DNA of 32,000 nt, from positions 1 to 32,000 of the forward strand of contig CAYZRF010000010.1 of NCBI GenBank assembly GCA_964480775.1. The letters are read 5' to 3'. Positions within the stretch are counted from its first letter, which is position 1. The number at the start of each line of letters is the position of its first letter. The notes under the pieces were generated by a model. That model was not told where the DNA came from, made no database searches, and saw nothing but the letters and a program-made list of their open reading frames with translations. Both the position numbers and the translations under genes were made by a program. The stretch is from an uncultured Nitrososphaerota archaeon (lineage in GTDB: Archaea; Korarchaeota; Korarchaeia; Korarchaeales; Korarchaeaceae). Below, piece after piece: positions 1 to 11,991 of this stretch.

Positions 1-222
1 TGATGGGCTTGATCTGGGTGAGTTGGCAAAGAAGGCTGATGCCAGAGGAGCTGCTTATCTGATATGGGAGCTCAGATTCGCTGGGTTTAGGGAAGAGGTT
101 AAGGAATTTGTTGATGGGCTTGATCTGGGTGAGTTGGCAAAGAAGGCTGATGCCAGAGGAGCTGCTGATCTGATACGGGCGCTTAGATTGAATGAGTTTA
201 GGGAAGAGGTTAAGGAATTTGT
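1..222. repeat. Tandem direct repeat, 2 x 111 bp (1-111 and 112-222), with the start of a third degenerate unit at 223.
   Basis: Manual alignment gives 8 mismatches in 111 nt, all between unit positions 56 and 84. The flanks are identical. Confidence 0.9.
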
Positions 223-271
223 TGATGAGCTTAGAAATTGCCAAATCGAACTTCCTCGCCTTCCAAGTTAA
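2..271 (+). CDS. C-terminal fragment of a repeat protein (37-aa tandem repeats, helical-repeat-like). The 5' end lies outside the window.
   Basis: The frame is open from the window edge to TAA at 269-271. The repeat unit DGLDLGELAKKADARGAA-LI--LR---FREEVKEFV occurs twice. Confidence 0.45.
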   Translation, partial: DGLDLGELAKKADARGAAYLIWELRFAGFREEVKEFVDGLDLGELAKKADARGAADLIRALRLNEFREEVKEFVDELRNCQIELPRLPS

Positions 272-410
272 CTAGATTCATCAGATACGTACCTGAACTA
301 AATCTTCGTGAAACTGTGATTTTACGACAAGATAGACTTACAAATTTATATACTTTCGCAAACTTTTCTAATATGGCTCCCCTCACCATTGGTCTTCACC
401 AATTGACTTT

Positions 411-462
411 GGGGGGCTCAGGGGCAGGGGGGGTTGGGCTTAGTTTTCCCTGGCCCCTGCCC
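411..462 (+). other. G-rich element: four G-runs (G6, G4, G7, G3) with G-quadruplex potential, overlapping a 9-bp GC hairpin.
   Basis: The sequence ggggggctcaggggcagggggggttggg spans 411-438. GGGCAGGGG at 422-430 pairs with CCCCTGCCC at 454-462, leaving a 23-nt loop. It sits in an otherwise AT-rich non-coding stretch. Confidence 0.5.
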
Positions 463-535
463 TATCATAACCCCCATCATGATTGCTGCCTATACTTTTT
501 AAGAATTTCTGCCATACAGAAAATAGGGGTTTGGC

Positions 536-679
536 ATGTCTGAATGGGTAAGCATGAAGATCAAGAGAGATGTTTATCAGAGATTGCTTAACCTAAAGGC
601 TGATTTGAGCAAGAAAAAAGGCAGGGTTGTCGATTTCTCTGAGGCAATGGCTTATGCTCTTGAAAAAGTTGGCTATTGA
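536..679 (+). CDS. Small ribbon-helix-helix-like DNA-binding protein (47 aa; below the ORF-track cutoff).
   Basis: Hand translation: MSEWVSMKIKRDVYQRLLNLKADLSKKKGRVVDFSEAMAYALEKVGY*. It shows a beta-alpha-alpha pattern typical of CopG/Arc-like proteins. An alternative start is the ATG at 554. Confidence 0.45.
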   Translation: MSEWVSMKIKRDVYQRLLNLKADLSKKKGRVVDFSEAMAYALEKVGY

Positions 680-709
680 CAAATTGACAATAATATATTA
701 GAATATGGC

Positions 710-1705
710 TCATGACAATTTGGCAGATTTGAGCCTGTAAACCCCTGGCTTAACCCTCTCAATAAGCCCTGCTTCAATCAGCTTGTTTATTTTTCGATAA
801 ACAGATCTCTGGCTCAATTTAACAGATTTACAGATCTGTTTAATCGTTAGTTTGCCCCCATCGTTTTGGGCAATCTGGCAGAGATGTTCATAGAATGGAT
901 CCTTTTTGTAATGCTCTTCATGCCCCCAGGATGCAAAGCTTTTGCTGATTCGATCTGTCCAAAAGCTTGGCAAGGAGTTCTTGCATTTTATAATCGCAAA
1001 TCTCCTAAGGAGCCATGTAAAATAAGATTGGGTATAATATTGCAGGTATTTGCTATATTTGGCCAGCAAATACTTGAAGTAATCATCCTTCCAGGTTACG
1101 AAATACTTTGGACGTTCTGATTTTGGCAAGTTCGCAAAGAATAGCAAGGCATAATTAACAAAATCGCTAAAGGCATCATGTTCAAGGTGCATTTGCAGGG
1201 CTGCTGGCTCCTTTAGGAAGATGTAATCAGCTTGGGATCTGATCAATTTATCTATAAGGGCACCTGCCTGGGTTATGAAGATCAAGGACAGGCCTTTATG
1301 CCTGCTTATGGCAATGATGTTTGCAGCCTGAACGTTGATGTTACGCATTGCCCTGCGTGCATGAAACGTTAATTCAGCCTCATCTATTACTGCAAAGGAT
1401 CCATTTGGGATTTTAGTTATGTCTCTGGCAGTTTTGAATGGGGTATTTTCCAGGTTTGTCCATACATCCCTGGCAAAGAATCCCTTAGCAAGTTCTCCAA
1501 GCCTTAAACCTAAAGCAGTCTTTCCAGCCCCCCTTTTTCCAACGATTACAACAGTTTTAGAGCCTTCAAAGATGTCCCTAAAGAAATACATCCAATCAAA
1601 TTCATCCAGGATAAGGCCATATCTCCTTATGGCAGCTTCATCCTCAACAAGCTTAGGAGAAAAAAGCTTAGGAGAAAAAACAGGGGCAGGGATAGCCATT
1701 TTCAT
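710..1705 (-). CDS. P-loop NTPase (Zot/pI-like morphogenesis ATPase motifs) fused to a C-terminal winged helix-turn-helix.
   Basis: Walker A GKRGAGKT (nt 1517-1540). Walker B FAVIDEAE (nt 1373-1396). SRHKGLSLIFITQ resembles the Zot-family HRH-G-D--ITQ motif. The C-terminus LTIKQICKSVKLSQRSVYRKINKLIEAGLIERVKPGVYRL is wHTH-like. ATGA overlap with the upstream gene. Confidence 0.8.
   Translation of the reverse strand: MKMAIPAPVFSPKLFSPKLVEDEAAIRRYGLILDEFDWMYFFRDIFEGSKTVVIVGKRGAGKTALGLRLGELAKGFFARDVWTNLENTPFKTARDITKIPNGSFAVIDEAELTFHARRAMRNINVQAANIIAISRHKGLSLIFITQAGALIDKLIRSQADYIFLKEPAALQMHLEHDAFSDFVNYALLFFANLPKSERPKYFVTWKDDYFKYLLAKYSKYLQYYTQSYFTWLLRRFAIIKCKNSLPSFWTDRISKSFASWGHEEHYKKDPFYEHLCQIAQNDGGKLTIKQICKSVKLSQRSVYRKINKLIEAGLIERVKPGVYRLKSAKLS
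1651..1680. repeat. Perfect 15-nt tandem duplication (gcttaggagaaaaaa x2) inside the NTPase N-terminus.
   Basis: Read directly from the sequence. It encodes FSPKL-FSPKL on the minus strand. Confidence 0.9.
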
Positions 1706-1896
1706 CTACGCTTTTTCCTTGCCTGGCTTATTATCCTTGCTCCTTGCTGTCCTGGGAATTTCTGCCAGAATATCTTGCCTGCTGTCCTGCGTGCAATTTC
1801 TCTTGCTTGATCTGGGGGATAACCCTTTTTCAGGTAGAAACGATAGATCTTGTTTTCAATGTCCTTGAATCTAACGCCCTTTTTCCCAACGTCCAT
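1702..1896 (-). CDS. Small basic protein (64 aa), paralog of the adjacent 65-aa protein.
   Basis: Shared pattern I-----FY--KG--P-QA--IA---A-K-F--KF plus an Arg/Lys tail (ARKKRR). Stop/start overlaps occur on both sides. Confidence 0.6.
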   Translation of the reverse strand: MDVGKKGVRFKDIENKIYRFYLKKGYPPDQAREIARRTAGKIFWQKFPGQQGARIISQARKKRR

Positions 1897-2093
1897 TAAG
1901 ATCGCCTCTTACGCCATTTGAAAAAACGCCTTGCATTATCTGGCCCAAACTTCCTGAAAATGACCTTTGCTGCTGCCCCCTCTGCAATTTTCTCTGCCTG
2001 CTGAGGATCCATGCCCTTAGATATGTAAAACTGCTTGATGTTCTCTTTTATGGTGTTATAATAGCCCTCTGCTTTTTCAGGATCAAAGCTCAT
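1896..2093 (-). CDS. Small basic protein (65 aa), paralog of 1702..1896.
   Basis: Same motif pattern, with tail KWRKRRS. TAATG overlap with the downstream paralog and ATGA overlap with the upstream micro-ORF. Confidence 0.6.
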   Translation of the reverse strand: MSFDPEKAEGYYNTIKENIKQFYISKGMDPQQAEKIAEGAAAKVIFRKFGPDNARRFFKWRKRRS

Positions 2094-2200
2094 TTTCTTT
2101 GCCTCTTGCTCGCTTTTAGCATCTCTCTAAGCTCTTCAATTTCTCTTTTGTTTGATGCCCATGCCAGGATGATTATGATGATGACCAGGATATGCCCCAT
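2090..2200 (-). CDS. Micro-ORF, 36 aa: a single-pass TM segment plus a basic tail.
   Basis: Hand translation: MGHILVIIIIILAWASNKREIEELREMLKASKRQRK*. Its ATG overlaps the stop of the upstream gene by 1 nt, and its TGA overlaps the ATG of the downstream gene. Confidence 0.4.
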   Translation of the reverse strand: MGHILVIIIIILAWASNKREIEELREMLKASKRQRK

Positions 2201-2799
2201 CATCTTAATCTGCCCTCTTGTTCCATTTTTCTAAGGAATTCCTGGATATCAGCTTCTCCAATCCTTATTGGGCTTGGAACAGCCTTCATCTCCTCAGTTA
2301 TCTGATAGGGCACAGTAAGCCTTGTTAATCGTCTCATTAGCTCTGGCGTTTCATCAAGGACAAGAGCAAGCTTCTCTGCAAGCTGCTTATTCTCAAGCAA
2401 TCCAAGCATGTCCTGGATGTCATAAAGCAGGAAGATCCAGCCCAGAAATGAGGGTTTTGTAAGGTAAAGGACATAATTGGGGTTTGCATCAACTATCTTA
2501 AGGCCTGCTGATTCTAAGACCGTTACGGTTCCAAATGCCCTGATCAAAGGCATTGGGATCTGAATATGCACAGAATAGCTTTGCAGGAATTCACGCTTTG
2601 GAGTTAAGTTTATGCCCTCAACTTCAAGCCCTTTAAGCCCAAGCCATGCAAGATCAACGGTAATGGGCATTACTGAATCAAGCTGGAAGTTATACCATAT
2701 TCCATTGGTAAAGACTAACGAAATAGTTTGCCCTGGCCTGAAGATTGAGCGTTTTGCATCTCTTAGGGCAGCCCTGATTAACTCTTGAAGCTGCCCCAT
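2200..2799 (-). CDS. Hypothetical soluble protein. 199 aa from the ATG at 2799; the ORF track extends it to 2853.
   Basis: Long ORF. The ATG at 2799-2797 overlaps the TAA of the upstream gene by 1 nt (TAATG), the same coupling pattern used elsewhere in this operon. Confidence 0.65.
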   Translation of the reverse strand: MGQLQELIRAALRDAKRSIFRPGQTISLVFTNGIWYNFQLDSVMPITVDLAWLGLKGLEVEGINLTPKREFLQSYSVHIQIPMPLIRAFGTVTVLESAGLKIVDANPNYVLYLTKPSFLGWIFLLYDIQDMLGLLENKQLAEKLALVLDETPELMRRLTRLTVPYQITEEMKAVPSPIRIGEADIQEFLRKMEQEGRLR

Positions 2800-3743
2800 T
2801 ACCTTAGCCCTGGCATGCTCATAGGTGTCGCTTGCTTCTGTTTCCATTTCCATAGGATTATCACCAATCCCAGGATGCAGGGCACAGCAATGCCAGCAGA
2901 AATAAGCAGGATCCTCTTGCGTTTGGCAGCCTGCTGCATTGCTATAAGCTGCAACAAGGCCTGCTGTTTCTCTTGTTCGCTTGTGGAAGGATCCAATATT
3001 ACCATTAGGATGCCCATCTGTGGATTTTCTTGCATTAGCTGCATCATGACAGGGTTCTGCATCATGCTGCTGCTTGATTTCTCAAGCTTGTTGATCTTCT
3101 GCATTATTTCGTTTAGGTAATTTTCAACAATCGCATCCTCTGTCTCCCTCTTTATCAGTTCTTTGTTTGCATCAACGATTTTCTGAGCTATCTGCTGGGC
3201 TTGTTCCTTTGAAATGCCCCCAGAAGTGTCTATTTTGCTTATTTCCTGCTGGATTATCTGCGTTATCTCCTGCCTGATTTCATCTTCAATTTCCTGTTTT
3301 ATCTGATCCTTTAAGGCTGCAATATCCTGGCTGTTATCTGAAACCTGGCCTTGTTGGTTCTGATCCTGTTGTGCATTAACTGTTGATGGATCTGCAATTT
3401 TTACATCATCCGTTGTTTCCAGCCTTATGATGCAATAAGATGCCTTAATTTCCGTGAAATAGAGGGTAAAGCTTACATCTTCAATTGAGTATTGCAGAAA
3501 TGAGCCCTCATTAACTTCATAGGCATTTGCTGTTGGATAGATTTGGTTAAAGACCGCTGTCTTATTTTCTCCAGGATAAACAATAAAATCAAGGCTGCGT
3601 TTGCCATTTACTAATATAGTGTATGTCTTTTCGTATGAAATTGCATAGATCTGTTGATTTGCAACTTCTCGCAAGTTACTCGCGAGTACTTGCGAACTAA
3701 TCGCGAGAATCAAAAAAATAAAGGAGAGGGTTGTTTTTTGCAT
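2799..3743 (-). CDS. Secreted, C-terminally membrane-anchored coiled-coil protein.
   Basis: N-terminal signal peptide MQKTTLSFIFLILAISSQVLA. Beta-rich N-terminal domain. Q/E/I-rich helical region, including 3 x 24-nt periodic QEI----- units at 3241-3312. C-terminal TM segment ILLISAGIAVPCILGLVIILW. Confidence 0.75.
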   Translation of the reverse strand: MQKTTLSFIFLILAISSQVLASNLREVANQQIYAISYEKTYTILVNGKRSLDFIVYPGENKTAVFNQIYPTANAYEVNEGSFLQYSIEDVSFTLYFTEIKASYCIIRLETTDDVKIADPSTVNAQQDQNQQGQVSDNSQDIAALKDQIKQEIEDEIRQEITQIIQQEISKIDTSGGISKEQAQQIAQKIVDANKELIKRETEDAIVENYLNEIMQKINKLEKSSSSMMQNPVMMQLMQENPQMGILMVILDPSTSEQEKQQALLQLIAMQQAAKRKRILLISAGIAVPCILGLVIILWKWKQKQATPMSMPGLR

Positions 3744-3750
3744 GTTTGCA

Positions 3751-4059
3751 TCACCAAGGTATTAATTCAGCTAATGGATTTCCTAAGTTGAAGATTCCAT
3801 AGATTATTCCTAGGAGCGCGAAGAAAGTTATGAAGTAAATGATGAAGAAGTCCGTTTGATCGCGAAAGATCTTGAAATCTCCTATTATCCAGTCTAAGAA
3901 CAATGAAATAGGTATTGCTGCGACCGCTGCGATTATAAAGCTTTCAGTTAGGCCAAATTGCGATAGAACGGTCGTGCTAAATTGTATAGCGATTCCTACG
4001 ATGCTGCCAAATAAAATGACTGCGATTGTTGCTATTACCGTCTTAATTCTAGGTTTCAA
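3751..4059 (-). CDS. Small hydrophobic protein with 3 predicted TM segments (102 aa from the TTG at 4059).
   Basis: Hydrophobic segments TVIATIAVILFGSIVGIAIQF, FIIAAVAAIPISLFLDWII and FFIIYFITFFALLGIIYGIF. The TTG at 4059 overlaps the upstream stop as TTGA, and GGTGA lies 7 nt upstream. The ORF track starts at another TTG at 4092. Confidence 0.65.
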   Translation of the reverse strand: MKPRIKTVIATIAVILFGSIVGIAIQFSTTVLSQFGLTESFIIAAVAAIPISLFLDWIIGDFKIFRDQTDFFIIYFITFFALLGIIYGIFNLGNPLAELIPW

Positions 4060-6107
4060 ATCAAGCTCACCCCCCCTAATATGTACGTACAAACGATTAT
4101 TATCAAGCCAAGAGCTAGTAGGCCGCTACCTAGCTTTCTAAGTTCTTTCGTTTTTGTTAGAGATCCAAGAACCAACATAACGAATCCTAAGACTGCTAAG
4201 GCAATTCCTAGCCAATAGAAGGAGCCAGAACCCATGCCAGATTCTAGCCATGCAAGCAGCGCAGCGAAAGATGCGCCAGATTCTCCTTGAAATAGTTCTG
4301 CTTGTGTTTCATATTGTGTCGCTTTTTGTTCGTAATCTTCCGCTTTCTCTATATGACTTTCTGGTTTTCCTTGTAAGAACCAATCGAAATAACCAGAAAC
4401 ATCGGGATCGTATGCGCTCGCTGCTTTAATTCTTTCTTCAGCGCTCGCTAACCATTGATTTGCTGCCATTTCATACATCATGCGCTCGCTAGTACTGTTT
4501 GCTGCTTCGGCCTTTTCCATCGCTTCCTTTGCTTTTTGTAGATCGTACTGCGCTAATTTCAATTGGGCCATTGCTTTGGGATCATCTACGTCTGCCATCG
4601 TCTTATTTAGCAGTTCTTCCCATTTCTGCCAAAATGCGCTATTTGCTGAAGGAGTTCCTAATGTACCGTTTCCAGATGTTGTTTCTACGTTCCATTCGCT
4701 AGGATAGATGAGAATAGGATATGTCAAATAGGCATCTATGGGATCGCCAAAATGCAGCGTTATATCGCTTGCTGTTATGCTAGAAACGTCTTCAGGTATA
4801 AAGTCGCTAGAAACGTCTTTATATGATGTCGTTAACGTCACAGATTTTGATGCTGGATCAAACGATCCATCTCTGCTAGAAAATTCTATTTTCAAGCTAA
4901 CGTCCTTATTTGCTTTAATTGAAAACGTTACTGTCTTCTTTTTGCCGCCTTCAAAAGCGTTAGTCGTCTTTTGTATTATCCAAAGTTTGTAGTCACCAGA
5001 TTGAATAAACCAAGTCGCATTAGTCATTTTAGCTGTTTGTGTTTCGACGTAGATGCCGCGCCAATACGTTTTCAAATCTCCCCAAGGATCTGGATCGCAG
5101 AATCCACAGGCATGTCCAAATTCATGTAATAGCTCATCTAACATCCCAGCGTTTATTATAAAGCCATGCATGCAATATAGAGCGCCTGCGCCTGCAGGAA
5201 ATGGCGGAGTTGGTACTCCGTTCCATACTGTTAGCTCTTCCCTTTGCGGCAGCTTGTTATATAGCTGATTTGGAGTTGCGTTTTCTAGTTCTGTCCAGTT
5301 TAAGTCTGGTTCTGAGTGAACGGAATACTGAGAAATGTAACAGATGCCGCCAGATGCTTCCGCTATCGTTTTGTTAAATTCTTCGACTACGCTGCTTGGA
5401 ACTCCATAGAATACTGCAGTAAATGGTTTCTTTGGATCAATATATCCATCTCCGCATCCTTCTGCAATGTCCCATGAGCCTGCAATGTCCCCGTGCTCAA
5501 AGTATGACATTGCAATGTTATCAAGGTCCAAGTGCAACGTGAACGTAACGCTTGTAGGCTGAACCTGGACAGTTCCATAGATTGATGATGATATGTTGAT
5601 TGGTTCCTTTGGAAACGTTACGTTGAACGTTAGATGCACCTCATGGACATCCGTTAGGTTTTCCCAAAGCCAATTGATTAAGCTGAGATCAGTTTTGAAC
5701 CTAAATGTGCTTTCCTCGCCCAAGTACCAAAAACCCAAGCCGCTGAAATAATAACCTTCGATTATTGGATCCCAGGGGGCTGAATAGCTGCCTGAAGTTC
5801 CATCAGACCTTGTGTAGTCAAAAACAGGATTATCCTTGTAATAGCAATGCGGTTTTATCTCTATCCATCTGCTGTTCCCCTTAGCTGTTATTTTAGTTAC
5901 GCATCTGGCGTTAATAGTGATTTTATTACGCACATCCCATGCTGCGGCATTGCTGGGCTCTGCTGTTATGTTCCAATAAACCGTTTGCCCATCAAGTTCT
6001 GTTTCTTTTACTGTTAGTTTGACATGGCCATAGGTAAGCCCCAGAACATTAAAGGCCGCGATTCCAAGCATTAGAATTAAAAAAACGGTTATGACTGCCT
6101 TTTTCAT
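4056..6107 (-). CDS. Large secreted, membrane-anchored protein with a metzincin-type zinc-binding motif and a helical stalk.
   Basis: Signal peptide MKKAVITVFLILMLGIAAF. HEFGHACGFCD (nt 5094-5126) matches HExxHxxGxxD. About 11 N-x-S/T sequons by my count. A/E/K/Q-rich helical region of about 150 aa, then two C-terminal TM segments. AGGTGA lies 7 nt upstream of the ATG. Confidence 0.8.
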   Translation of the reverse strand: MKKAVITVFLILMLGIAAFNVLGLTYGHVKLTVKETELDGQTVYWNITAEPSNAAAWDVRNKITINARCVTKITAKGNSRWIEIKPHCYYKDNPVFDYTRSDGTSGSYSAPWDPIIEGYYFSGLGFWYLGEESTFRFKTDLSLINWLWENLTDVHEVHLTFNVTFPKEPINISSSIYGTVQVQPTSVTFTLHLDLDNIAMSYFEHGDIAGSWDIAEGCGDGYIDPKKPFTAVFYGVPSSVVEEFNKTIAEASGGICYISQYSVHSEPDLNWTELENATPNQLYNKLPQREELTVWNGVPTPPFPAGAGALYCMHGFIINAGMLDELLHEFGHACGFCDPDPWGDLKTYWRGIYVETQTAKMTNATWFIQSGDYKLWIIQKTTNAFEGGKKKTVTFSIKANKDVSLKIEFSSRDGSFDPASKSVTLTTSYKDVSSDFIPEDVSSITASDITLHFGDPIDAYLTYPILIYPSEWNVETTSGNGTLGTPSANSAFWQKWEELLNKTMADVDDPKAMAQLKLAQYDLQKAKEAMEKAEAANSTSERMMYEMAANQWLASAEERIKAASAYDPDVSGYFDWFLQGKPESHIEKAEDYEQKATQYETQAELFQGESGASFAALLAWLESGMGSGSFYWLGIALAVLGFVMLVLGSLTKTKELRKLGSGLLALGLIIIVCTYILGGVSLI

Positions 6108-6120
6108 CTTGCGATCACCT

Positions 6121-7617
6121 TTAGATATATCCTAAGAGCGCGAAGAACATGTAAAGAATCCATAGAATCACTAGAAACTTCCAAATCTGCTTAATTGCTC
6201 CTATAATGAATCCCGCGGCTGTTATCACTAGAAGTATTATGCCAATACCTATCAGCCAGCTTGGAAGGCCGCTTAGATCAGCGAGATAATCAGGAATAAG
6301 CCATAAGTACGATGTATATTTTGATATTGTGCTAGAACTGATTACAAAGACGTATCTGCTTGTTGAAGATTCTAAGTGCGTTCCATCGCCTAAGAACTTT
6401 GCAACTAATTTCTTTGCACCTGTTGTCGTATCTTCTGGAACCTCAAGGGTTTTAGTGTATTTTCCTGTGCTATCGGTCTTTACAGCATAATCAACTCCAA
6501 GCCAGGATATGACAACAGTCCTGTTTGCAAGTGCAGATCCATCGACAAGCTTCAAATAGCCCGTTATTGTAAATGATTTGCCTGGGTTCACTTCTAAGGG
6601 GGATGATGTTATTGTTATCTTTGTTTCGATTATTAAGCCTACCGTGAATGCCCTCTCCTCCAAAAGACTGCTCGATAAACCGTCTTCCTTTGCCAGCACC
6701 GTGATGTTGTAATAACCTTCATTTGCATCTGGCTGGGGTGTAAAATAGTATTCGAAAAGCCCTGTTCCGCTGTTATATACCATAGTTGCGTTTTCTACAA
6801 CGTTTGCACCCTTAGGATCCGTTATGTTAATTTTAACGCTTGTTGAGCTTGGAGATCCGCATGTTATGTTAGCTTCTATTTTAACAGTTTCCCCTATCTC
6901 TATGCTCGTAGGAGAAACGCTTATTTCGTTGATAACAGGAGCATCTGAATAAGTTATGTAGAAATAATCTACCCAGTGATAATAATTTTGATCTGAGCCG
7001 CTGCCGCTTGTATATATCTCAATTTTGTCGAAATTATGCGTTTCCGTGACAGATTTTGTTGCATCGGCATCTCCAGATATCTGAACCGTTAGGCTGTCAC
7101 CCTTCCTGGTAATGTTGCAAACAAAAAGGCCGTCTGAAGGGGCTGCTATGTTTGTTTTTGTTCCGTTCTGATCGATGGTATATTGCCCGAACCCAGATGT
7201 GGATTCATCGATATAGCCTATTCTTAGTTCATAGTTATTTTCCGTATCCTTCAGCTTAACGACCAGCATTGACCAGTAACTACTTGTTAGCTTTACTTTT
7301 CCCTTGAACTCTATTGAGAAGTCTCCTGTCAGATTTTTAACGCCTGTTTCTGTTTTGTTTAGTTCGCATTCAACGTACCCGCTGTTTGTTTGCGTAATGT
7401 TCATGCTCAAATGTGTTCCGTTCACTCCAGCAACAGAACTTGCTCCCAATGAAACAATCCAAGATGGGCCAATCTCTGTTCTGTCGAAATCATCCTTCCA
7501 TGTTCGCTTGAGAGCTAAAGTAGGCATTAGGGGGCTTACTAATACCAGGGCGATAATGCCTAAACTGACGATATACTTTTTACTCAGGGCTCTCACCCTA
7601 TGCTTATTTCTAATCAA
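6121..7617 (-). CDS. Secreted, membrane-anchored adhesin-like protein: lectin/LamG-like beta-sandwich, Ig-like domain, and CarboxypepD_reg-like domain.
   Basis: N-terminal TM/signal segment. RTWKDDFDRTEIGPSW followed by a beta-rich domain. INEISVSPTSIEIGETVKIEANITC is Ig/CARDB-like. GYLKLVDGSALANRTVVISW...VKTDSTGKYTKTLEV fits the carboxypeptidase-regulatory-like pattern. Two C-terminal TM segments and about 11 N-x-S/T sequons. The start is uncertain (TTG 7617 or GTG 7596). Confidence 0.8.
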   Translation of the reverse strand: MIRNKHRVRALSKKYIVSLGIIALVLVSPLMPTLALKRTWKDDFDRTEIGPSWIVSLGASSVAGVNGTHLSMNITQTNSGYVECELNKTETGVKNLTGDFSIEFKGKVKLTSSYWSMLVVKLKDTENNYELRIGYIDESTSGFGQYTIDQNGTKTNIAAPSDGLFVCNITRKGDSLTVQISGDADATKSVTETHNFDKIEIYTSGSGSDQNYYHWVDYFYITYSDAPVINEISVSPTSIEIGETVKIEANITCGSPSSTSVKINITDPKGANVVENATMVYNSGTGLFEYYFTPQPDANEGYYNITVLAKEDGLSSSLLEERAFTVGLIIETKITITSSPLEVNPGKSFTITGYLKLVDGSALANRTVVISWLGVDYAVKTDSTGKYTKTLEVPEDTTTGAKKLVAKFLGDGTHLESSTSRYVFVISSSTISKYTSYLWLIPDYLADLSGLPSWLIGIGIILLVITAAGFIIGAIKQIWKFLVILWILYMFFALLGYI

Positions 7618-7848
7618 TTATCTATTTAAGAACATAATTCTCCTTCATTTTTTGCATATTTAGGTGTATTATAACAACACAACAGGCAAAAGCTCTTACC
7701 TGCCTAAGTTTTGGTAAAACAAGCTTGCCCTTTTTGCTCAAGGTTTGGGTTTTGCATGTTAAAGTGTCCTGAATAAGGGGTTTGACTCTATGAAGCTTGC
7801 TCTTTTGCATGTTGTAGTTTAAAAAATCATTTTACCATGCAATAACGT
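7618..7848. promoter_or_regulatory. Control region between the surface-protein operon and the divergent wHTH gene.
   Basis: AT-rich. TATA-like tttaaaaaa at 7818-7826, 23-31 nt upstream of the ATG at 7849. TATA-like ttataata on the minus strand at 7667-7674. The 11-mer TTTTGCATGTT occurs at 7750-7760 and 7803-7813, with a 1-mismatch copy at 7650-7660. Confidence 0.45.
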
Positions 7849-8196
7849 ATGCCAAAGACATTTGGCTTAATTAAGATCCATCGTGATACCAGGATAATCG
7901 AACCTCAGGACTTTCTGGATCTCATTTTCCCAAGAAAAGCCCATTATGCCCACTACGCTGCCCAATTGTTGCCTTTAATTGCAAAGGGGCAGGTAAACAG
8001 AGATAGCTATAAATGGCTGCCAGAACAACTTGGGATCTCAAAAAGGACATACTATTATGTTCTGCAAAGGTTAATGGCTTTAGGGCTTGTTATCAAGGAA
8101 AATAACGTTTACAAATTGAGCAAGAGATTTGCTAAAAACATGCAAAGGCTTGCAGAGTTCTGGGAAGCTTGGGCAGAGAGATTGGGGGCAGAATAA
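7849..8196 (+). CDS. Winged-helix transcription regulator (115 aa).
   Basis: LGISKRTYYYVLQRLMALGLVIKENNVYKL is a typical HTH plus wing. It is the only plus-strand gene in the core of the element. A T6 tract follows at 8209-8214. Confidence 0.7.
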   Translation: MPKTFGLIKIHRDTRIIEPQDFLDLIFPRKAHYAHYAAQLLPLIAKGQVNRDSYKWLPEQLGISKRTYYYVLQRLMALGLVIKENNVYKLSKRFAKNMQRLAEFWEAWAERLGAE

Positions 8197-8208
8197 ACCC
8201 TTTCCCTC

Positions 8209-8214
8209 TTTTTT
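8209..8214 (+). terminator. Oligo-T tract downstream of the wHTH gene.
   Basis: TTTTTT lies 13 nt after the stop. Archaeal termination typically uses oligo-T. Confidence 0.3.
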
Positions 8215-8321
8215 GCAAGTTATTAAAATTCCACTTACTCGAGAGGAGTTCCTTAATAACTTCCTGGTAATGGCCAGGATATAGGCCAGGTTATGAGGAT
8301 CCAAATAAGGCAGGTAATAAT

Positions 8322-8327
8322 AAAAAA
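8322..8327 (-). terminator. Oligo-T tract (minus strand) downstream of the 11335->8333 operon.
   Basis: AAAAAA on the plus strand, just after the stop at 8333. Confidence 0.3.
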
Positions 8328-8332
8328 GAGGG

Positions 8333-8614
8333 TTAAAGCAGGCTTGTTTTAAGCTCTGCAATTGCCTTTTTTCTCAGATCCTCTTTTAATTTCCTTTTAG
8401 CCCTTGTTATGCTCTCAAAAGCTGGCATTATCTTCAAGCTGCTGATTGGGATTTTTAGGATCCATGTGAACCCATCGAATTCAACAGTAACGCAGAATTG
8501 GTTCTGGAATCTTCTTAGCACCTTAAACATTAGTTCCCAATCGTTTGCAACGTGCTCTGTTTCATAGATCTCCTTAATCATTTCTTCAAGGGTTTTGGGC
8601 ATAAACAACCCCAA
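8333..8614 (-). CDS. Hypothetical protein (93 aa; possibly starts at the ATG at 8602).
   Basis: ORF at the end of the co-directional operon. No recognisable motif. Confidence 0.5.
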   Translation of the reverse strand: MGLFMPKTLEEMIKEIYETEHVANDWELMFKVLRRFQNQFCVTVEFDGFTWILKIPISSLKIMPAFESITRAKRKLKEDLRKKAIAELKTSLL

Positions 8615-9023
8615 CCCTGCTTAAATACCTGCAAAATGCGATTACCTTAGAGCTAAGCCTTGATCTGCTTTGTCTTCCTGTTCTGCTTATGTTTAGGATG
8701 TGGTTGAGCATTTCGCAAGCTCTTGGATCTATTATTTTGTAGCTTCCAGGTTTGAAGTTGTTGAATTGCAGCAGCTTGTAGGCAAGGAAATAGGCAGGGG
8801 CACCAGGCTTGGGTATTGGATCACGCAATCGTTTGCCATTTAGGAATACATGATAAGTGAATCCGTCCTTTTTTATTTCAACTTCAAAGATTTCAGCCCT
8901 ATCAGGATCAAATGGTGCATAAAAAGGGCATAGGTAGCTGCTGCATTTATTGCCTCTGATTAGGCAGCTTCTGGATCTCCAAAGGCATGTTACGCATCCT
9001 CTAAGTTCAAGCTTCAATGTCAT
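8586..9023 (-). CDS. Cys-rich hypothetical protein (145 aa).
   Basis: N-terminal cluster C-x2-C-x6-C-x7-C-x4-C (GCVTCLWRSRSCLIRGNKCSSYLC). ATGA overlap with the upstream gene. Confidence 0.55.
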   Translation of the reverse strand: MTLKLELRGCVTCLWRSRSCLIRGNKCSSYLCPFYAPFDPDRAEIFEVEIKKDGFTYHVFLNGKRLRDPIPKPGAPAYFLAYKLLQFNNFKPGSYKIIDPRACEMLNHILNISRTGRQSRSRLSSKVIAFCRYLSRVGVVYAQNP

Positions 9024-9244
9024 ATAGAATCCCTCAATTTCCTTGCAATAACAAGAAACGGAGTTCCTCCTATCTCAAAGCATCCAAGCTCTAAGGTTTG
9101 GTTCTCAAATGGGCAATCTTCCTGGCTGCAAGTGAAGTAATAGCCCCCTTCAAGCTCTACAATGCCAGAAACGTTGATCTTTCCGCATTTATCAAAGCAA
9201 AAGTCAATGTCCTTTTTCCTTCCTATTATAAACAGTTTCTTCAA
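9020..9244 (-). CDS. Small Cys-containing, zinc-ribbon-like protein. 74 aa from the TTG at 9244; the ORF track extends it to 9370.
   Basis: CFDKCGK...CSQEDCPF. The TTG at 9244 overlaps the stop of the upstream 292-aa gene as TTGA. The longer version would overlap that gene by 130 nt. Confidence 0.45.
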   Translation of the reverse strand: MKKLFIIGRKKDIDFCFDKCGKINVSGIVELEGGYYFTCSQEDCPFENQTLELGCFEIGGTPFLVIARKLRDSI

Positions 9245-10119
9245 GATCCTGCCCCCCTCAAAGCAGAGATTATCAGCTTGTTTTGCTCCAAGATCCAACG
9301 TTGCTGCTGCAAGAATTCCCTTTGCTGATCCAAGAGCATCTGAAACTGTTTCATGAACAAGGCAAGCCATTGGGCTGTGTTGTAAACGCCAACGCCCCCA
9401 ATTAGCATGGTCATAACGCTGCCAGCATCCAAAACTGTGTTTGGCTGTATTTCTTCCCTTAGAACATTATCAGATTTCTGATAAACCCTTTTTAGTGCGT
9501 TATCAAAGGATTCAACAGTTATTGATTTAACCCCATCAAGCTGCAAGCCAAAATGATCGTTGTTCAAGTGAATCCTGCTTATCTTGATCTCGTCATCCTG
9601 GGGCTCAATTCCTAATGTATGGTAGATTTCACGCTTGAAGAGCCCAATGATAAGACTAAAACCATCATAATCAAGCCCCTGATCTGCATTGACAAAGGCA
9701 GAAACCTTGCCATGTTTTCTGCCAAACCTTATCTGCATTGTAATGTTCCCAAAAGCAAGATTTATGGTTCTGCTTAGATAGGGCTTGGTTCTGCCCTTTA
9801 TCTCGTAGATTAATATGAGATCATGAACCTTAGGCTTGATGGGCTCTGGATGCCATTGCTGCTGAGGATCCAACCCCACTCCCTGGGTTTGGATATTTGC
9901 AGCATATAGCCCCCTGGAAATTCGCTTAATGAATCCTGCCTTAGATAGTTTTTGGGCATATTTTCTTGCTGTATGATATGACAGCCTTGCTTTTTCAGAG
10001 ATCTCCTTAATGCTTAAGGGCTCTTTTGATGCTCTTAGTATTGATATGATCTTCTGCTGTCCTGGTGTAAGTGTTGATACTGGAGATGTTTGGATATATC
10101 CAATTGGAGATTTGGGCAT
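9241..10119 (-). CDS. wHTH-containing protein with an unknown C-terminal domain of about 200 aa (candidate replication or regulatory protein).
   Basis: N-terminus QQKIISILRASKEPLSIKEISEKARLSYHTARKYAQKLSKAGFIKRISRGLY is wHTH-like. The rest is unrecognised, and the C-terminus is Q-rich and helical. Confidence 0.75.
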   Translation of the reverse strand: MPKSPIGYIQTSPVSTLTPGQQKIISILRASKEPLSIKEISEKARLSYHTARKYAQKLSKAGFIKRISRGLYAANIQTQGVGLDPQQQWHPEPIKPKVHDLILIYEIKGRTKPYLSRTINLAFGNITMQIRFGRKHGKVSAFVNADQGLDYDGFSLIIGLFKREIYHTLGIEPQDDEIKISRIHLNNDHFGLQLDGVKSITVESFDNALKRVYQKSDNVLREEIQPNTVLDAGSVMTMLIGGVGVYNTAQWLALFMKQFQMLLDQQREFLQQQRWILEQNKLIISALRGAGS

Positions 10120-10434
10120 TTAGGGCTCCCTTGCCCCTGATTCAGCTTGAGCTTGGTGTATTTTCAGAACCTTAAGCCCTGCTGGGGTTATGATGTAGTA
10201 AGCCTTTTGTCCCTCTTTGAATTTCGATAAAAGCCCAAGTTTGACAAGTTTCTCTGCAATATACCTTATCCGCTCATAGTAAAGCCTGTTGTCTTTTTCA
10301 AATAGTTCTTGCTTTATCTCTGAGATCCTGGCGTTGTCTCTGGCTGCAATGCTCTCAAGAACCATGAAATAGAGTTCTCTGCCCATGAAGTTGTTGATTG
10401 TGTAAAAAAGGGTTAGGGGGTTGGGCTCTGGCAT
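10120..10434 (-). CDS. Small winged-helix regulator (PadR/MarR-like fold, 104 aa).
   Basis: ISEIKQELFEKDNRLYYERIRYIAEKLVKLGLLSKFKEGQKAYYIITPAGLKVL. Confidence 0.7.
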   Translation of the reverse strand: MPEPNPLTLFYTINNFMGRELYFMVLESIAARDNARISEIKQELFEKDNRLYYERIRYIAEKLVKLGLLSKFKEGQKAYYIITPAGLKVLKIHQAQAESGAREP

Positions 10435-10652
10435 TAGATCACCTTTTTTGGCTCTAACTCAATGTTTAGAGCATATGCAAGCTTCCTCAGAAGTTCTCTC
10501 GCTTGGTTCTTATCGAGTCTTATTGTAGCATAGTTAGAACCCACATCAAAGCATAATTCTAGTTCTCCGCTCATCTGATGATGAATTTGAATGTCGATAG
10601 ATAGCCATTGAAGCTCTAAATATACTGTATATCTTGGTAAAACGGTCATCAT
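10434..10652 (-). CDS. Hypothetical protein (72 aa).
   Basis: ORF coupled to the downstream gene by a 1-nt TAATG overlap. Confidence 0.5.
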   Translation of the reverse strand: MMTVLPRYTVYLELQWLSIDIQIHHQMSGELELCFDVGSNYATIRLDKNQARELLRKLAYALNIELEPKKVI

Positions 10653-10660
10653 TTGCCCCC

Positions 10661-11335
10661 CTACATGTAAACAGTAAGCTGTGGTGCTCTCTTTGCTCTC
10701 TTTGGCATGTAATGGTTCTTTTTGTAATCTTTTATCTGCTGAGCCGCTTTTTCTGGCTCCTTTGATTCTCCAACGCCATTGATGGGCAATTCCAGCCTTG
10801 CAACCGATCTTGTGAATGGTGCAAAAACCCTGATGGGTTCAATTGGGCAGTAATCCCCTTGCAGGAAGATCTTGGGATTTATGCCGTGCTTAAGGCAGAT
10901 CTGTTCATATTTCTCAAGACATTCCTGCAATGAGTTGGTTACAGTTGTTGATGAAGCTATTGAGTAGGAGCCGCATTTCCTGCTTACTCCTAAGCCCTCA
11001 GAACCCCCTTTTGTGTAATCCTCATGGTGAACAACATCAAGCTGGCTTAGGAATTTGTCCCTGAGCTCATCAGGCAATTGGTAGTTTACCTTATCAATCG
11101 TGAAATAGCCAAAAACAAGAGCCTCTTGCTCTGTGCAATCCTCTTTTAAGCCCTCAAAGAACGCCAAAAAGATTTTTTCGCCCCATTTCATACTTTTGGC
11201 AATCTTGATGGGGATTGCCCTGCTTACGCCATATTTCCTTGCTTCTGTCTCAAAGGTCTTCCTTGTGTAAAGCCCTTTGCCGATATAATGCAGCCATTGG
11301 CCATTTTCCTGAATAGATTCTTGCCCCTGAGCCAT
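10661..11335 (-). CDS. Hypothetical protein (224 aa), first clear gene of the 11335->8333 operon.
   Basis: Long ORF with no motif I recognise. An AT-rich putative promoter region lies upstream (11390-11500). Confidence 0.7.
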   Translation of the reverse strand: MAQGQESIQENGQWLHYIGKGLYTRKTFETEARKYGVSRAIPIKIAKSMKWGEKIFLAFFEGLKEDCTEQEALVFGYFTIDKVNYQLPDELRDKFLSQLDVVHHEDYTKGGSEGLGVSRKCGSYSIASSTTVTNSLQECLEKYEQICLKHGINPKIFLQGDYCPIEPIRVFAPFTRSVARLELPINGVGESKEPEKAAQQIKDYKKNHYMPKRAKRAPQLTVYM

Positions 11336-11664
11336 GTTTTATGCCCCCCTGAAAAAGTTTCCAAAGGCAGGGCTTGGGTTGCTGATTTTAGTTTTGCAAA
11401 GTATTCTGGCTAAAATAGTTATTTTACTGTGTTTTTTCGCCAAATCTGTGATTTCACGCCTCCTTTCATTAGTTATAATATTAGTGATTACGGCTTTTTC
11501 AGCTTGAATGGAACTTCTACGATACACGTACAATCGTAGAGCTTGCACATCTTGCCCCTGTGAGTCTTAGTTAGTGGAACGAGGAATTCTCTCCCTCTTT
11601 TCCTGTAAACCGCTGCTATAACTCTTCCTTCTACTCTATCTCCTGGGTTCCTTCCAATCAATCT

Positions 11665-11991
11665 CTACACCTCTGGTTCTACAACTCCCTTTTCCACAAG
11701 TTTCTCTAAGGCTTCGAGAACCTTGAAGTAGGGAATTCCTAGCTCTACGCAAATGTCGGAGGGATATGCTCTTCCTTTATCCTTGAGATAAGATATTATC
11801 TGCTTGTAGATTTCTTCATCACTTAGATCTACGGCCTCTATCACTTCAATCTCCTCTAATTTCTCCCGAACTGCCTCTCTTATGAACTCAGCCTCATTGT
11901 TGTAAAGCCCAGTCTTCTTAACTACTTCACTTATCCTCTCCCAGAGACCTAGCGGGATTGCTACGCTCTTGTACTTCGCCTTTGCCCTCAT
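11665..11991 (-). CDS. Ribbon-helix-helix (CopG-like) plus C-terminal winged-helix regulator.
   Basis: YKSVAIPLGLWERISEVVKKTGLYNNEAEFIREAVREKL fits RHH. The C-terminus IISYLKDKGRAYPSDICVELGIPYFKVLEALEKLVEKGVV fits wHTH. Glu/Lys-rich, host-like composition. Confidence 0.8.
   Translation of the reverse strand: MRAKAKYKSVAIPLGLWERISEVVKKTGLYNNEAEFIREAVREKLEEIEVIEAVDLSDEEIYKQIISYLKDKGRAYPSDICVELGIPYFKVLEALEKLVEKGVVEPEV

Follow-up and report, generated by a model that had tools for sequence, protein, structure and literature searches.

What is the block of genes that occupies the left third of a 32,000-nucleotide stretch of archaeal DNA (contig CAYZRF010000010.1, positions 1 to 32,000, here called the window), where does it end and how did it enter the chromosome? 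A preliminary description had taken it for a modular mobile element beside host genes, consisting of a morphogenesis operon, a divergent winged helix-turn-helix (wHTH) gene and a regulator-rich operon, and this architecture was confirmed. Our results indicate that a small circular element of double-stranded DNA is present at 314-11,454 as an intact provirus, and that it is most likely a temperate archaeal virus of wyrdvirus-like type, inserted by a tyrosine recombinase that acted in trans. We give this reading a probability of roughly 70%.

Ends of the element and its integration site

The integrated element has a length of 11,132 bp and both of its ends lie within the window. Each end carries a copy of a 9-bp core, CTGTGATTT on the plus strand and AAATCACAG on the minus strand, which forms a direct repeat at 314-322 and 11,446-11,454 and has no other copy in the 32 kb. 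When the flanking bases were included, 13 of 14 positions matched; the number of shared 9-mers expected between two 60-nt segments is about 0.01. The right end had previously been sought at 11,550-11,660 and no direct repeat had been seen in the window; the end is now placed at 11,446-11,454 and the core is the repeat. The idea that the element continues leftward was not supported either, as the left end at 314 follows from the homology to a circular relative, L003, and from the att core. The following sites and open reading frames (ORFs; lengths in amino acids, aa) surround the two ends.

1..313, no strand: left flank outside the element; the homology to circular L003 stops at 320
307..326, minus strand: attL, CGTAAAA-TCACAG-TTTCACG, left arm from the element and right arm from the host; core at 314-322
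323..389, minus strand: 5' part of the ORF split by integration; begins MVRGAILEKFAKVYKFVSLSCRK and runs into host DNA as the hybrid ORF 231-389
11339..11445, minus strand: 3' part of the 59-aa ORF split by integration; together with codons from the host it forms ORF 11339-11548
11438..11458, minus strand: attR, CGTGAAA-TCACAG-ATTTGGCG, host left arm and element right arm; core at 11446-11454
11488..11991, minus strand: host genes at attB, a 57-aa ORF and a 108-aa wHTH/TrmB-like regulator; 96-100% identical in six contigs (L010-L014, L058)
attP junction as reconstructed: ...TCTATCTTGTCGTAAAATCACAGATTTGGCGAAAAAACAC...
attB junction as reconstructed: ...AATGAAAGGAGGCGTGAAATCACAGTTTCACGAAGATTTAGTTCAGG...
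attB palindrome: CGTGAAATCACAGTTTCACG

Joining the two ends through the core restored an intact 59-aa ORF (MVRGAILEKF...NFFRGA), which is 48% identical to a 61-aa ORF of L003 (7222-7407) that spans the equivalent point. The attP site thus falls within the small ORF with which the early operon begins. The arms of the window attP are CGTAAAA-TCACAGA-TTTGGCG. The reconstructed attB reads GGAGG-CGTGAAA-TCACAG-TTTCACG-AAG on the minus strand, a perfect 7-6-7 palindrome that lies in the reconstructed empty site within a spacer of about 95 nt between convergent genes, and attL is one mismatch away from the intact host palindrome. Both junctions were found in contigs of per-run assemblies with 100% identity. 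The Logan contigs L001 (SRR15988952; window 5601-198) and L002 (SRR15988953; window 2352-260) cross attL, and L058 (SRR15988951; window 11675-10108) runs from the host 57-aa gene across attR into the gene of a 224-aa protein. Since these contigs come from three separate runs, an assembly chimera at the junctions was ruled out.

The circular relative L003 (JGI contig Ga0072682_128734) was recognised through the ATPase of the block, which has almost no close homologues among 5.8 billion proteins; the protein P0002, 67% identical, is encoded on L003. The first 91 bases of this 10,250-bp contig recur at its end, so that the genome is circular with about 10.16 kb. Orthologues of eleven block genes were found in L003 (38-96% identity). 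Their order agrees apart from a circular permutation: L003 has the structural module and the ATPase before the regulator operon, whereas on the minus strand of the window the regulator operon comes first. L003 7238-7291 matches window 373-320 and L003 7296-7397 matches window 11447-11346. The homology is broken at a single point (L003 7291/7296), which corresponds to the two copies of the core in the window. The arms of the L003 attP are CGTAAAA-GGTGCGA-TTTTGCG.

The host site was then examined in contigs without the element. Of the six contigs that carry the 57-aa and 108-aa genes, L010-L014 are free of the element, and L058 is the per-run contig that crosses attR into it. In L011-L014, which are from other samples and 97-98% identical up to this position, the intact 22-mer CGTGAAATCACAGTTTCACGAA stands beside the two genes. 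The same 22-mer was found without a mismatch in the more divergent L055, where identity amounts to about 86% in the tail of the flanking gene and to about 74% in the stretch next to it; 22 consecutive matches at 74% identity have a probability of about 0.001. The L055 palindrome is longer, 10-6-10, with the sequence GTTCGTGAAA-TCACAG-TTTCACGAAC. Beyond the palindrome, the DNA of the window, of L011-L014 and of L055 all differ from one another. Judged from these sequences, attB itself is conserved and the DNA on one of its sides is variable. No RNA gene (tRNA, Rfam) overlaps attB. L010 is a closely related host contig of 83 kb and comes from the metagenome that also yielded circular L003. Its host DNA is 93.5% identical to that of the window, diverges 42 nt before the core and contains no palindrome within 20 kb. 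A 6.7-kb island with an Rce1-like gene, a radical SAM gene and a PIN/AbrB pair is located at its site. The strand skew in L010 gave no detectable inversion around the site and follows gene orientation.

The locus beside attB was hypervariable, with three unrelated fillings between the 108-aa regulator gene and a conserved methyltransferase region (L010 10500-17040, L055 160-1660 and L011 803-1243). On the other side of attL, positions 1-271 (plus strand) contain the 3' portion of a gene that consists of tandem repeats of 111 nt (37 aa), whose copies are 93% identical (...GLDLGELAKKADARGAA.LI..LR...FREEVKEFVD) and for which there was no Pfam match. The left flank 1-313 is either host DNA or another variable island.

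This variability bears on a reading in which a larger composite island extends past the left edge of the window and the block is only its right part; tandem elements at one att site would be an example. Three host lineages have three different sequences to the left of the palindrome, L010 has its 6.7-kb island and attL is still a near-perfect palindrome that could be used again. Both circular relatives, however, close with exactly the gene set of 314-11,454, and nothing in 1-313 matches them. We consider a composite island a possibility that deserves attention, though clearly the less probable one.

The composition of the DNA agreed with the right end. When the whole 32 kb was segmented by tetranucleotide usage (strand-symmetric Jensen-Shannon divergence, 250-bp bins), the best single split was at 11,500, with a split statistic of 1751 compared with 324 +/- 48 (maximum 532) in 300 bin permutations. 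All 2-kb intervals up to 11 kb correlated better with the block and all later ones with the right side. A break near 11.6 kb had been described before and is real; the change-point coincides with attR and was counted as evidence that the element ends there. In the annotated genes, Gln accounts for 4.46% in the block and 2.14% on the right, which is about double and corroborates the Gln-rich character noted earlier. The GC content of third codon positions is 0.42 in the block and 0.49 on the right, and the overall GC content differs slightly (0.416 and 0.448). From the codon contrast of the preliminary description, the lower use of ATA for Ile in the block was retained, whereas the preference for AGA/AGG for Arg is common to both sides and not confined to the right. 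The compositional contrast between the block and the right side is a matter of degree.

The right side had been described as mostly assignable genes, and annotation showed the genes of an archaeal chromosome (THEP1 NTPase, beta-CASP nuclease, TatD, Opp ABC transporter, MFS, TrxB-like reductase and a PhoU/AbrB regulator). The block proteins matched only HTH domains, immunoglobulin-like (Ig-like) domains and a Zot-like ATPase in Pfam and PHROG scans. The beta-CASP nuclease has close relatives with 77-84% identity; the nearest named ones are from Jordarchaeaceae (43%) and Lokiarchaeia (40%), and the next named one has 34%. The compositionally closest unrelated contig was L064 (tetranucleotide r=0.84 with the host side), which is binned as Korarchaeota/Thermoproteota.

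Gene modules and circular relatives

The genes of the element are arranged in one operon for two large secreted anchored proteins, a five-gene block and a Zot/pI-like ATPase with a wHTH domain, followed by a divergent wHTH gene and the early operon. They are listed here from left to right (TM, transmembrane; RHH, ribbon-helix-helix).

536..679, plus strand: 47-aa ORF (41 aa if the second ATG is the start), called in L001 and L002; RHH-like by eye
710..1705, minus strand: morphogenesis ATPase, Zot/pI-like P-loop domain and C-terminal winged helix; Pfam Zot and HTH families, PHROG Zot-like
1702..2093, minus strand: two paralogous basic proteins of 64 and 65 aa with KRR-rich C-termini, kept in L003 and L062
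2200..2853, minus strand: 217-aa protein in the morphogenetic block; identity 71% (L003) and 37% (L062)
2799..3743, minus strand: 314-aa Gln-rich protein with signal peptide, coiled coil and C-terminal membrane anchor; L003 60%, L062 26%
3751..4092, minus strand: small membrane protein with three TM segments, 102-113 aa, 95-96% identical in L003, dN/dS 0.05
4056..6107, minus strand: 683-aa secreted sequon-rich protein with two C-terminal TM helices; L003 86%, L062 23%
6121..7617, minus strand: 498-aa secreted protein with Ig-like domains and two C-terminal TM helices; Pfam Big_3_5 and MG2, both below cutoff
7849..8196, plus strand: divergent wHTH regulator of 115 aa; PHROG 32591 transcriptional regulator (E=1.6e-8), 39% identical to a 188-aa protein of L062
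8333..10652, minus strand: distal early/regulatory operon encoding proteins of 72, 104 (wHTH), 292, about 74, 145 (Cys-rich) and 93 aa
10661..11335, minus strand: 224-aa protein (g224), the first full gene after attR, member of a large uncharacterised family

A second circular relative, L062 (Logan SRR22214787), was found with the 224-aa protein. It has 13,038 bp and a terminal overlap of 30 nt, by which it is circular as well. It shares nine genes with the element, among them those of the ATPase-wHTH over its full length (35%), g217, g65/g64, g113, g314, g683, the divergent wHTH, g224 (49%) and g292 (29%). The free circular form with an intact attP is known from these relatives, L003 and L062, and not from the window element itself. 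No close relatives were detected in IMG/VR or the JGI metagenomes when these were scanned with the ATPase and the 683-aa protein. Thirty-five genome loci with ATPase homologues (in DPANN, Hadarchaeota, Methanosarcinales and others) were rejected as relatives, as they share the ATPase core only; P0003, which has a cellular ribosomal-operon context, was rejected for the same reason.

The dN/dS values between the window and L003 were 0.05 for g113, 0.19 for g683, 0.32 for g498, 0.12 for g314 and 0.20 for g65, and every orthologue pair with unsaturated dS is under purifying selection. The 498-aa protein is 66% identical to its L003 counterpart by tblastn and 68% over the aligned columns that were used for dN/dS. 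The divergence was mosaic. Between window 3751-7617 and L003 210-4049, dS is about 0.48 for g683 and g113 and 0.82 for g498, and the other orthologues have a dS above 2 or saturated, with 38-71% identity. This suggests that the segment of the spike and membrane-protein genes was recently exchanged between lineages by recombination.

Functions were assigned to several structural proteins as candidates. The 683-aa protein is a candidate adhesin or spike. The 113-aa protein is the most conserved protein of this family of elements, the only small membrane protein on the coding strand and the sole candidate for a capsid or matrix protein. The 64- and 65-aa paralogues could be the proteins that bind or condense the genome in the particle. 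For the 217-aa protein no match was found in Pfam or PHROG. Both the 498- and the 683-aa proteins end in an adjacent pair of TM helices and not in a single anchor, which recalls the hairpin of spindle-virus capsid proteins.

The ORF at 536-679 opposes the ATPase gene, which ends just beyond it, and the split early operon. Its position is kept in L003 (6921-7100, with a weak VapB/RHH match) and in L062 (7498-7650); the window protein itself has no Pfam match. The RHH-like protein is a candidate regulator of lysogeny or of the early operon, and a candidate regulator of the integration switch. The early operon is rich in DNA-binding proteins. Its 292-aa protein (g292) has a wHTH, a beta-rich domain and a C-terminal coiled coil, of which the wHTH alone was modelled confidently, and its orthologues are 38% identical in L003, 29% in L062 and 38% in the XerA-linked contig L064 described below.

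The probable recombinase and the 224-aa protein family

The 18 element ORFs that were scanned with Pfam contained no recombinase, integrase or transposase domain, and the precomputed Pfam annotation showed no recombinase or transposase domain in the called genes of circular L003 and L062. No tRNA was detected with ARAGORN and no RNA family with Rfam in the 32-kb window. The absence of an integrase, transposase and tRNA that had been read from the sequence was thus upheld. As neither the element nor its two circular relatives has a recognisable recombinase, a Xer-family enzyme acting in trans is the most likely one.

Inverted arms with a 6-nt spacer are the architecture of dif and other tyrosine-recombinase core sites (PMC8371274). 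The att sites studied here have the form 7-6-7 in the host of the window and 10-6-10 in L055, the crossover core overlaps the spacer, and the arms are similar in the window attP, the L003 attP and attB. The integration mechanism, which had been thought to be possibly an unknown one, was narrowed to a tyrosine-recombinase-type core site; that the enzyme is not recognisable in the element still holds.

As read from the four att sequences, integration occurred by conservative site-specific recombination of attP with the palindromic host attB, with the exchange taking place within the shared core. A Xer-family tyrosine recombinase would be supplied in trans, either by the host as XerA or by a co-resident element, and would act on sites of the type CGTRAAA-N6-TTTCACG, where the identity of the spacer picks the partners. 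The integration would split the small ORF; the early operon would also lose the 5' end of its first ORF and, presumably, its promoter. The start of the split ORF, and presumably also the early promoter, would then be left at attL pointing outward, and the operon from g224 to the gene of the 93-aa protein would remain at attR, downstream of the host 108-aa and 57-aa genes and co-oriented with them.

A linkage between related early genes and a XerA-type recombinase was observed in L064-L066. There, the orthologues of g224 and g292 (43% and 38%) lie directly downstream of a 294-aa tyrosine recombinase, which in L064 passes the NCBIfam cutoff for archaeal XerA (NF040815) with 222.1 bits compared with 220. 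L064 corresponds to ENA k141_213896 and JGI Ga0180300_10000131; the L064/L065 element is represented by NCBI RLG54496.1 in a Korarchaeota/Thermoproteota metagenome-assembled genome (MAG), and L065 and L055 are from the same metagenome. The recombinase gene is followed 6.7 kb downstream by a palindrome, CGTAAAA-TCAAAA-TTTCACG. This sequence departs from the attB 20-mer at three positions and agrees with the L055 attB at 20 of 23, and its match was reproduced in none of 200 shuffles. The XerA-linked element shares with the window element the early genes g224 and g292 and a palindrome with identical arms. It differs in that it stands beside a XerA-type tyrosine recombinase, is without the structural genes and the ATPase, and has the spacer TCAAAA.

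In L064, three att-like pieces were found within 250 bp (9420-9670): GAGGCGTAAAA, which is like the left side of attB, the palindrome, and a second AAATCAAAA core. The latter lies 143 bp further on and is followed by ATTTGG, the right arm of the element attP; in this AT-rich region it is given little weight. The pieces may be scars of repeated integration near the XerA-type gene. The T-loop-like motif GGTTCGAATCC beside the L064 site was considered as a tRNA and dropped, since it was not called as one.

Alternatively, the element may encode a recombinase of its own that is not recognised, for which g224 would be the best candidate and the 292-aa wHTH protein or the Cys-rich 145-aa protein the next ones. 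Next to the att site, where an integrase is usually located, g224 is the first complete gene. The integrated element has it and the episomal L003 does not, and no library names its family. At E<=1e-3 the family counts at least 425 cluster representatives, with clustering at 50% identity; its profile had no match in Pfam, PHROGs, NCBIfam or PDB. The residues E31, R39, R119, C121, G122, Y124, G160 and Y204 are invariant and R176 and H16 nearly so, and the family motifs are WLHYxG...EAxxxGVxRA...VxRxCGSY...FTR...Y; of the residues, R39, R119, Y124 and Y204, with R176 and H16, look like an active site. However, none of 75 family members matched Phage_integrase or Resolvase. The gene is also present in circular L062 (9454-10347, 49%), and in L064 (3889-4581, 43%) it co-occurs with the canonical XerA-type recombinase. 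In the phage contig L056 (50 kb; 7680-8813), the homologue is fused to a Myb-like domain and lies in a module with PolA, UDG and ThyX, a context that suggests a role in replication or DNA binding. Structure prediction did not contribute, as the AlphaFold2 single-sequence models were too poor (pLDDT 33 for g224 and 56 for g292) and Foldseek returned wHTH matches only. A self-encoded recombinase is in our view unlikely. Independent of this question, g224 represents a large uncharacterised family with an enzyme-like conserved core that occurs in archaeal elements and at least one phage.

Integration in trans is known from the integrative mobile elements exploiting Xer (IMEX), such as CTXphi of Vibrio cholerae, which have no self-encoded integrase (PMC5357621). 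As in these, the window element has no recognised integrase of its own, a site with inverted arms and a 6-nt spacer like dif, and variable DNA beside the site. CTXphi is likewise a non-lytic virus with a Zot ATPase, as proposed for the element. Unlike the IMEX in the literature consulted, which are documented in bacteria only, the element is archaeal and its arms have 7-10 bp; that attB is the host dif and that XerA acts on it is a conjecture here, and L010, a close host relative, lacks the site. It is conceivable, although we would not count on it, that the element represents the first IMEX of an archaeon, namely a non-lytic virus that has a Zot-like ATPase but no integrase, whose attP mimics a dif-like palindrome of the host and which enters and leaves through host XerA. 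It would be a counterpart of CTXphi in a possibly Asgard-related host, and the adjacent variable DNA would represent successive Xer captures.

Affinity to archaeal viruses and remaining alternatives

The ATPase was compared with 50,697 phage and archaeal-virus records in a permissive tblastn search. The best viral match was the AAA+ ATPase of Lokiarchaeota virus WyrdV1 (E=2e-3 database-wide), followed by inovirus Zot/pI proteins, and no pleolipovirus was among the matches listed. A stricter tblastn against the GenBank phage and archaeal-virus records gave nothing at E<=1e-3; the WyrdV1 match was seen in the permissive run only. With a profile of four ATPase sequences, the WyrdV1 ATPase was matched with E=2.9e-13 over residues 2-218 of 231. 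His1 ORF16 was matched weakly (profile E=8.5e-6). Beyond the ATPase, no element protein was similar to any protein of WyrdV1, His1 or SSV1. A hidden Markov model of capsid proteins (WyrdV1 MCP1/2, His1 VP21, SSV1 VP1/VP3) was run against the six-frame ORFs of the element and of L003; the best E-value was 0.078, and BLASTP gave nothing. This weak best match was to the ORF of the 683-aa orthologue in L003.

A cellular family with about 30-38% identity to the ATPase core (L004-L009, L015-L049) is widespread in MAGs of Nanoarchaeota/Woesearchaeota, Hadarchaeota and Methanosarcinales, and in L004-L009 the ATPase-like gene adjoins a ribosomal-protein and RNA-polymerase operon. This family may be the source of the viral ATPase, or the reverse.

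The wyrdviruses have been described as having a capsid protein, an adhesin, a five-gene block and then a pI-like ATPase without a TM domain (bioRxiv 10.1101/2021.07.29.453957). The element has a homologue of the WyrdV1 (MZ666939) morphogenesis ATPase, also without a TM segment; it was not listed in the scan for ORFs with at least two TM-like segments. The module order is the same, with the 498- and 683-aa proteins, then those of 113, 314, 217, 65 and 64 aa, and then the ATPase. The element proteins show no similarity to the WyrdV1 adhesin or the block genes b1-b5; position and number (five) agree. Both genomes are small (10-16 kb) and rich in HTH and Zn-finger proteins, with a plastic replication module, and WyrdV1 is without a polymerase. 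In contrast to the wyrdviruses, the element has no detectable His1-like capsid protein (about 80 aa with two hydrophobic segments). The WyrdV1 block consists mostly of small multi-TM proteins, whereas here it has a 3-TM protein, an anchored coiled-coil protein, a 217-aa protein without family or TM prediction, and two small basic proteins. The element ATPase has an extra C-terminal wHTH, and the element is integrated; no integrated wyrdvirus is described in bioRxiv 10.1101/2021.07.29.453957.

The C-terminal wHTH is shared with His1 (Halspiviridae), where ORF16 is likewise an ATPase with a C-terminal HTH. His1 and SSV1 (Fuselloviridae) further resemble the element in the structural region, where they encode secreted proteins with a C-terminal anchor and small proteins with three TM segments. 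In SSV1 the attP lies, as here, inside an ORF that is split on integration (PMC8371274). There it is the integrase, whereas the split ORF of the element has 59 aa and no recombinase features. Unlike His1 and SSV1, the element is without an SSV-type integrase, a VP1/VP21-type capsid protein and a protein-primed polymerase. Most likely, the element is a non-lytic membrane-associated virus distantly related to the wyrdviruses and the His1-type spindle viruses. Rather than a wyrdvirus, it is best regarded as the first provirus of a new group that has a distant relationship to the wyrdviruses and is founded by it.

An integrated plasmid, whose secreted proteins and ATPase would serve surface display or DNA transfer, would account for the missing capsid homologue, for the IMG/VR scans without matches and for the wide occurrence of cellular ATPase-core homologues in archaeal genomes. 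It does not fit with the closest viral ATPase being that of a spindle-type Asgard virus, followed by inovirus Zot/pI, nor with the order of large anchored proteins, small membrane proteins and ATPase, which parallels WyrdV1 and His1. Pfam scans of the element detected no conjugation or partition genes. We regard a plasmid as improbable. A decayed remnant, as had been suggested earlier for the lack of an integrase and to which the missing excised form in the source samples could also be added, or a chimeric junction can practically be dismissed, since the ORFs are intact and collinear with the two circular relatives, the dN/dS values are 0.05-0.32, the split ORF is restored in frame, and the contigs of three independent runs cross both junctions at 100% identity.

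Several observations weigh against a temperate virus integrated in trans. No capsid protein was identified, so that the term virus depends on the ATPase and the module architecture, and evidence for an excised circle was not obtained in the source samples. No contig joins the empty site to the left flank of the window itself; those with the intact palindrome run into other DNA. The absence of the palindrome at the locus in L010, a close host relative, speaks against an essential dif site. The att arms have 7-10 bp compared with 11 bp in dif, and the likeness of the attP arms of the window and L003 could reflect a coding constraint on the ORF (C-R-K ... D-F/L-A-K-K-H) rather than the binding of a recombinase. 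No xerA gene is present in the 32-kb window, and the L064 recombinase, 2 bits above the XerA cutoff, could be the integrase of that element itself. With regard to remote homology, the predicted structures of g224 and g292 were too poor to rule out a novel recombinase.

Temperate virus-like elements of archaea are of a known kind. New are the lineage, the integrated state of a wyrdvirus-like element and the integration without an integrase at a dif-like site. If the temperate-virus reading is true, the element and its two circular relatives form a new three-member group of small archaeal viruses, tied to the wyrdviruses and His1-type viruses through the extrusion ATPase only. Such elements can then be temperate, and attL, attR, attP and attB are resolved to the base pair. 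Integration would proceed without a recognisable integrase at a conserved dif-like palindrome, with relatives linked to a XerA-type recombinase. Archaeal viruses may therefore exploit Xer recombination, which the reviews consulted report for bacteria only.

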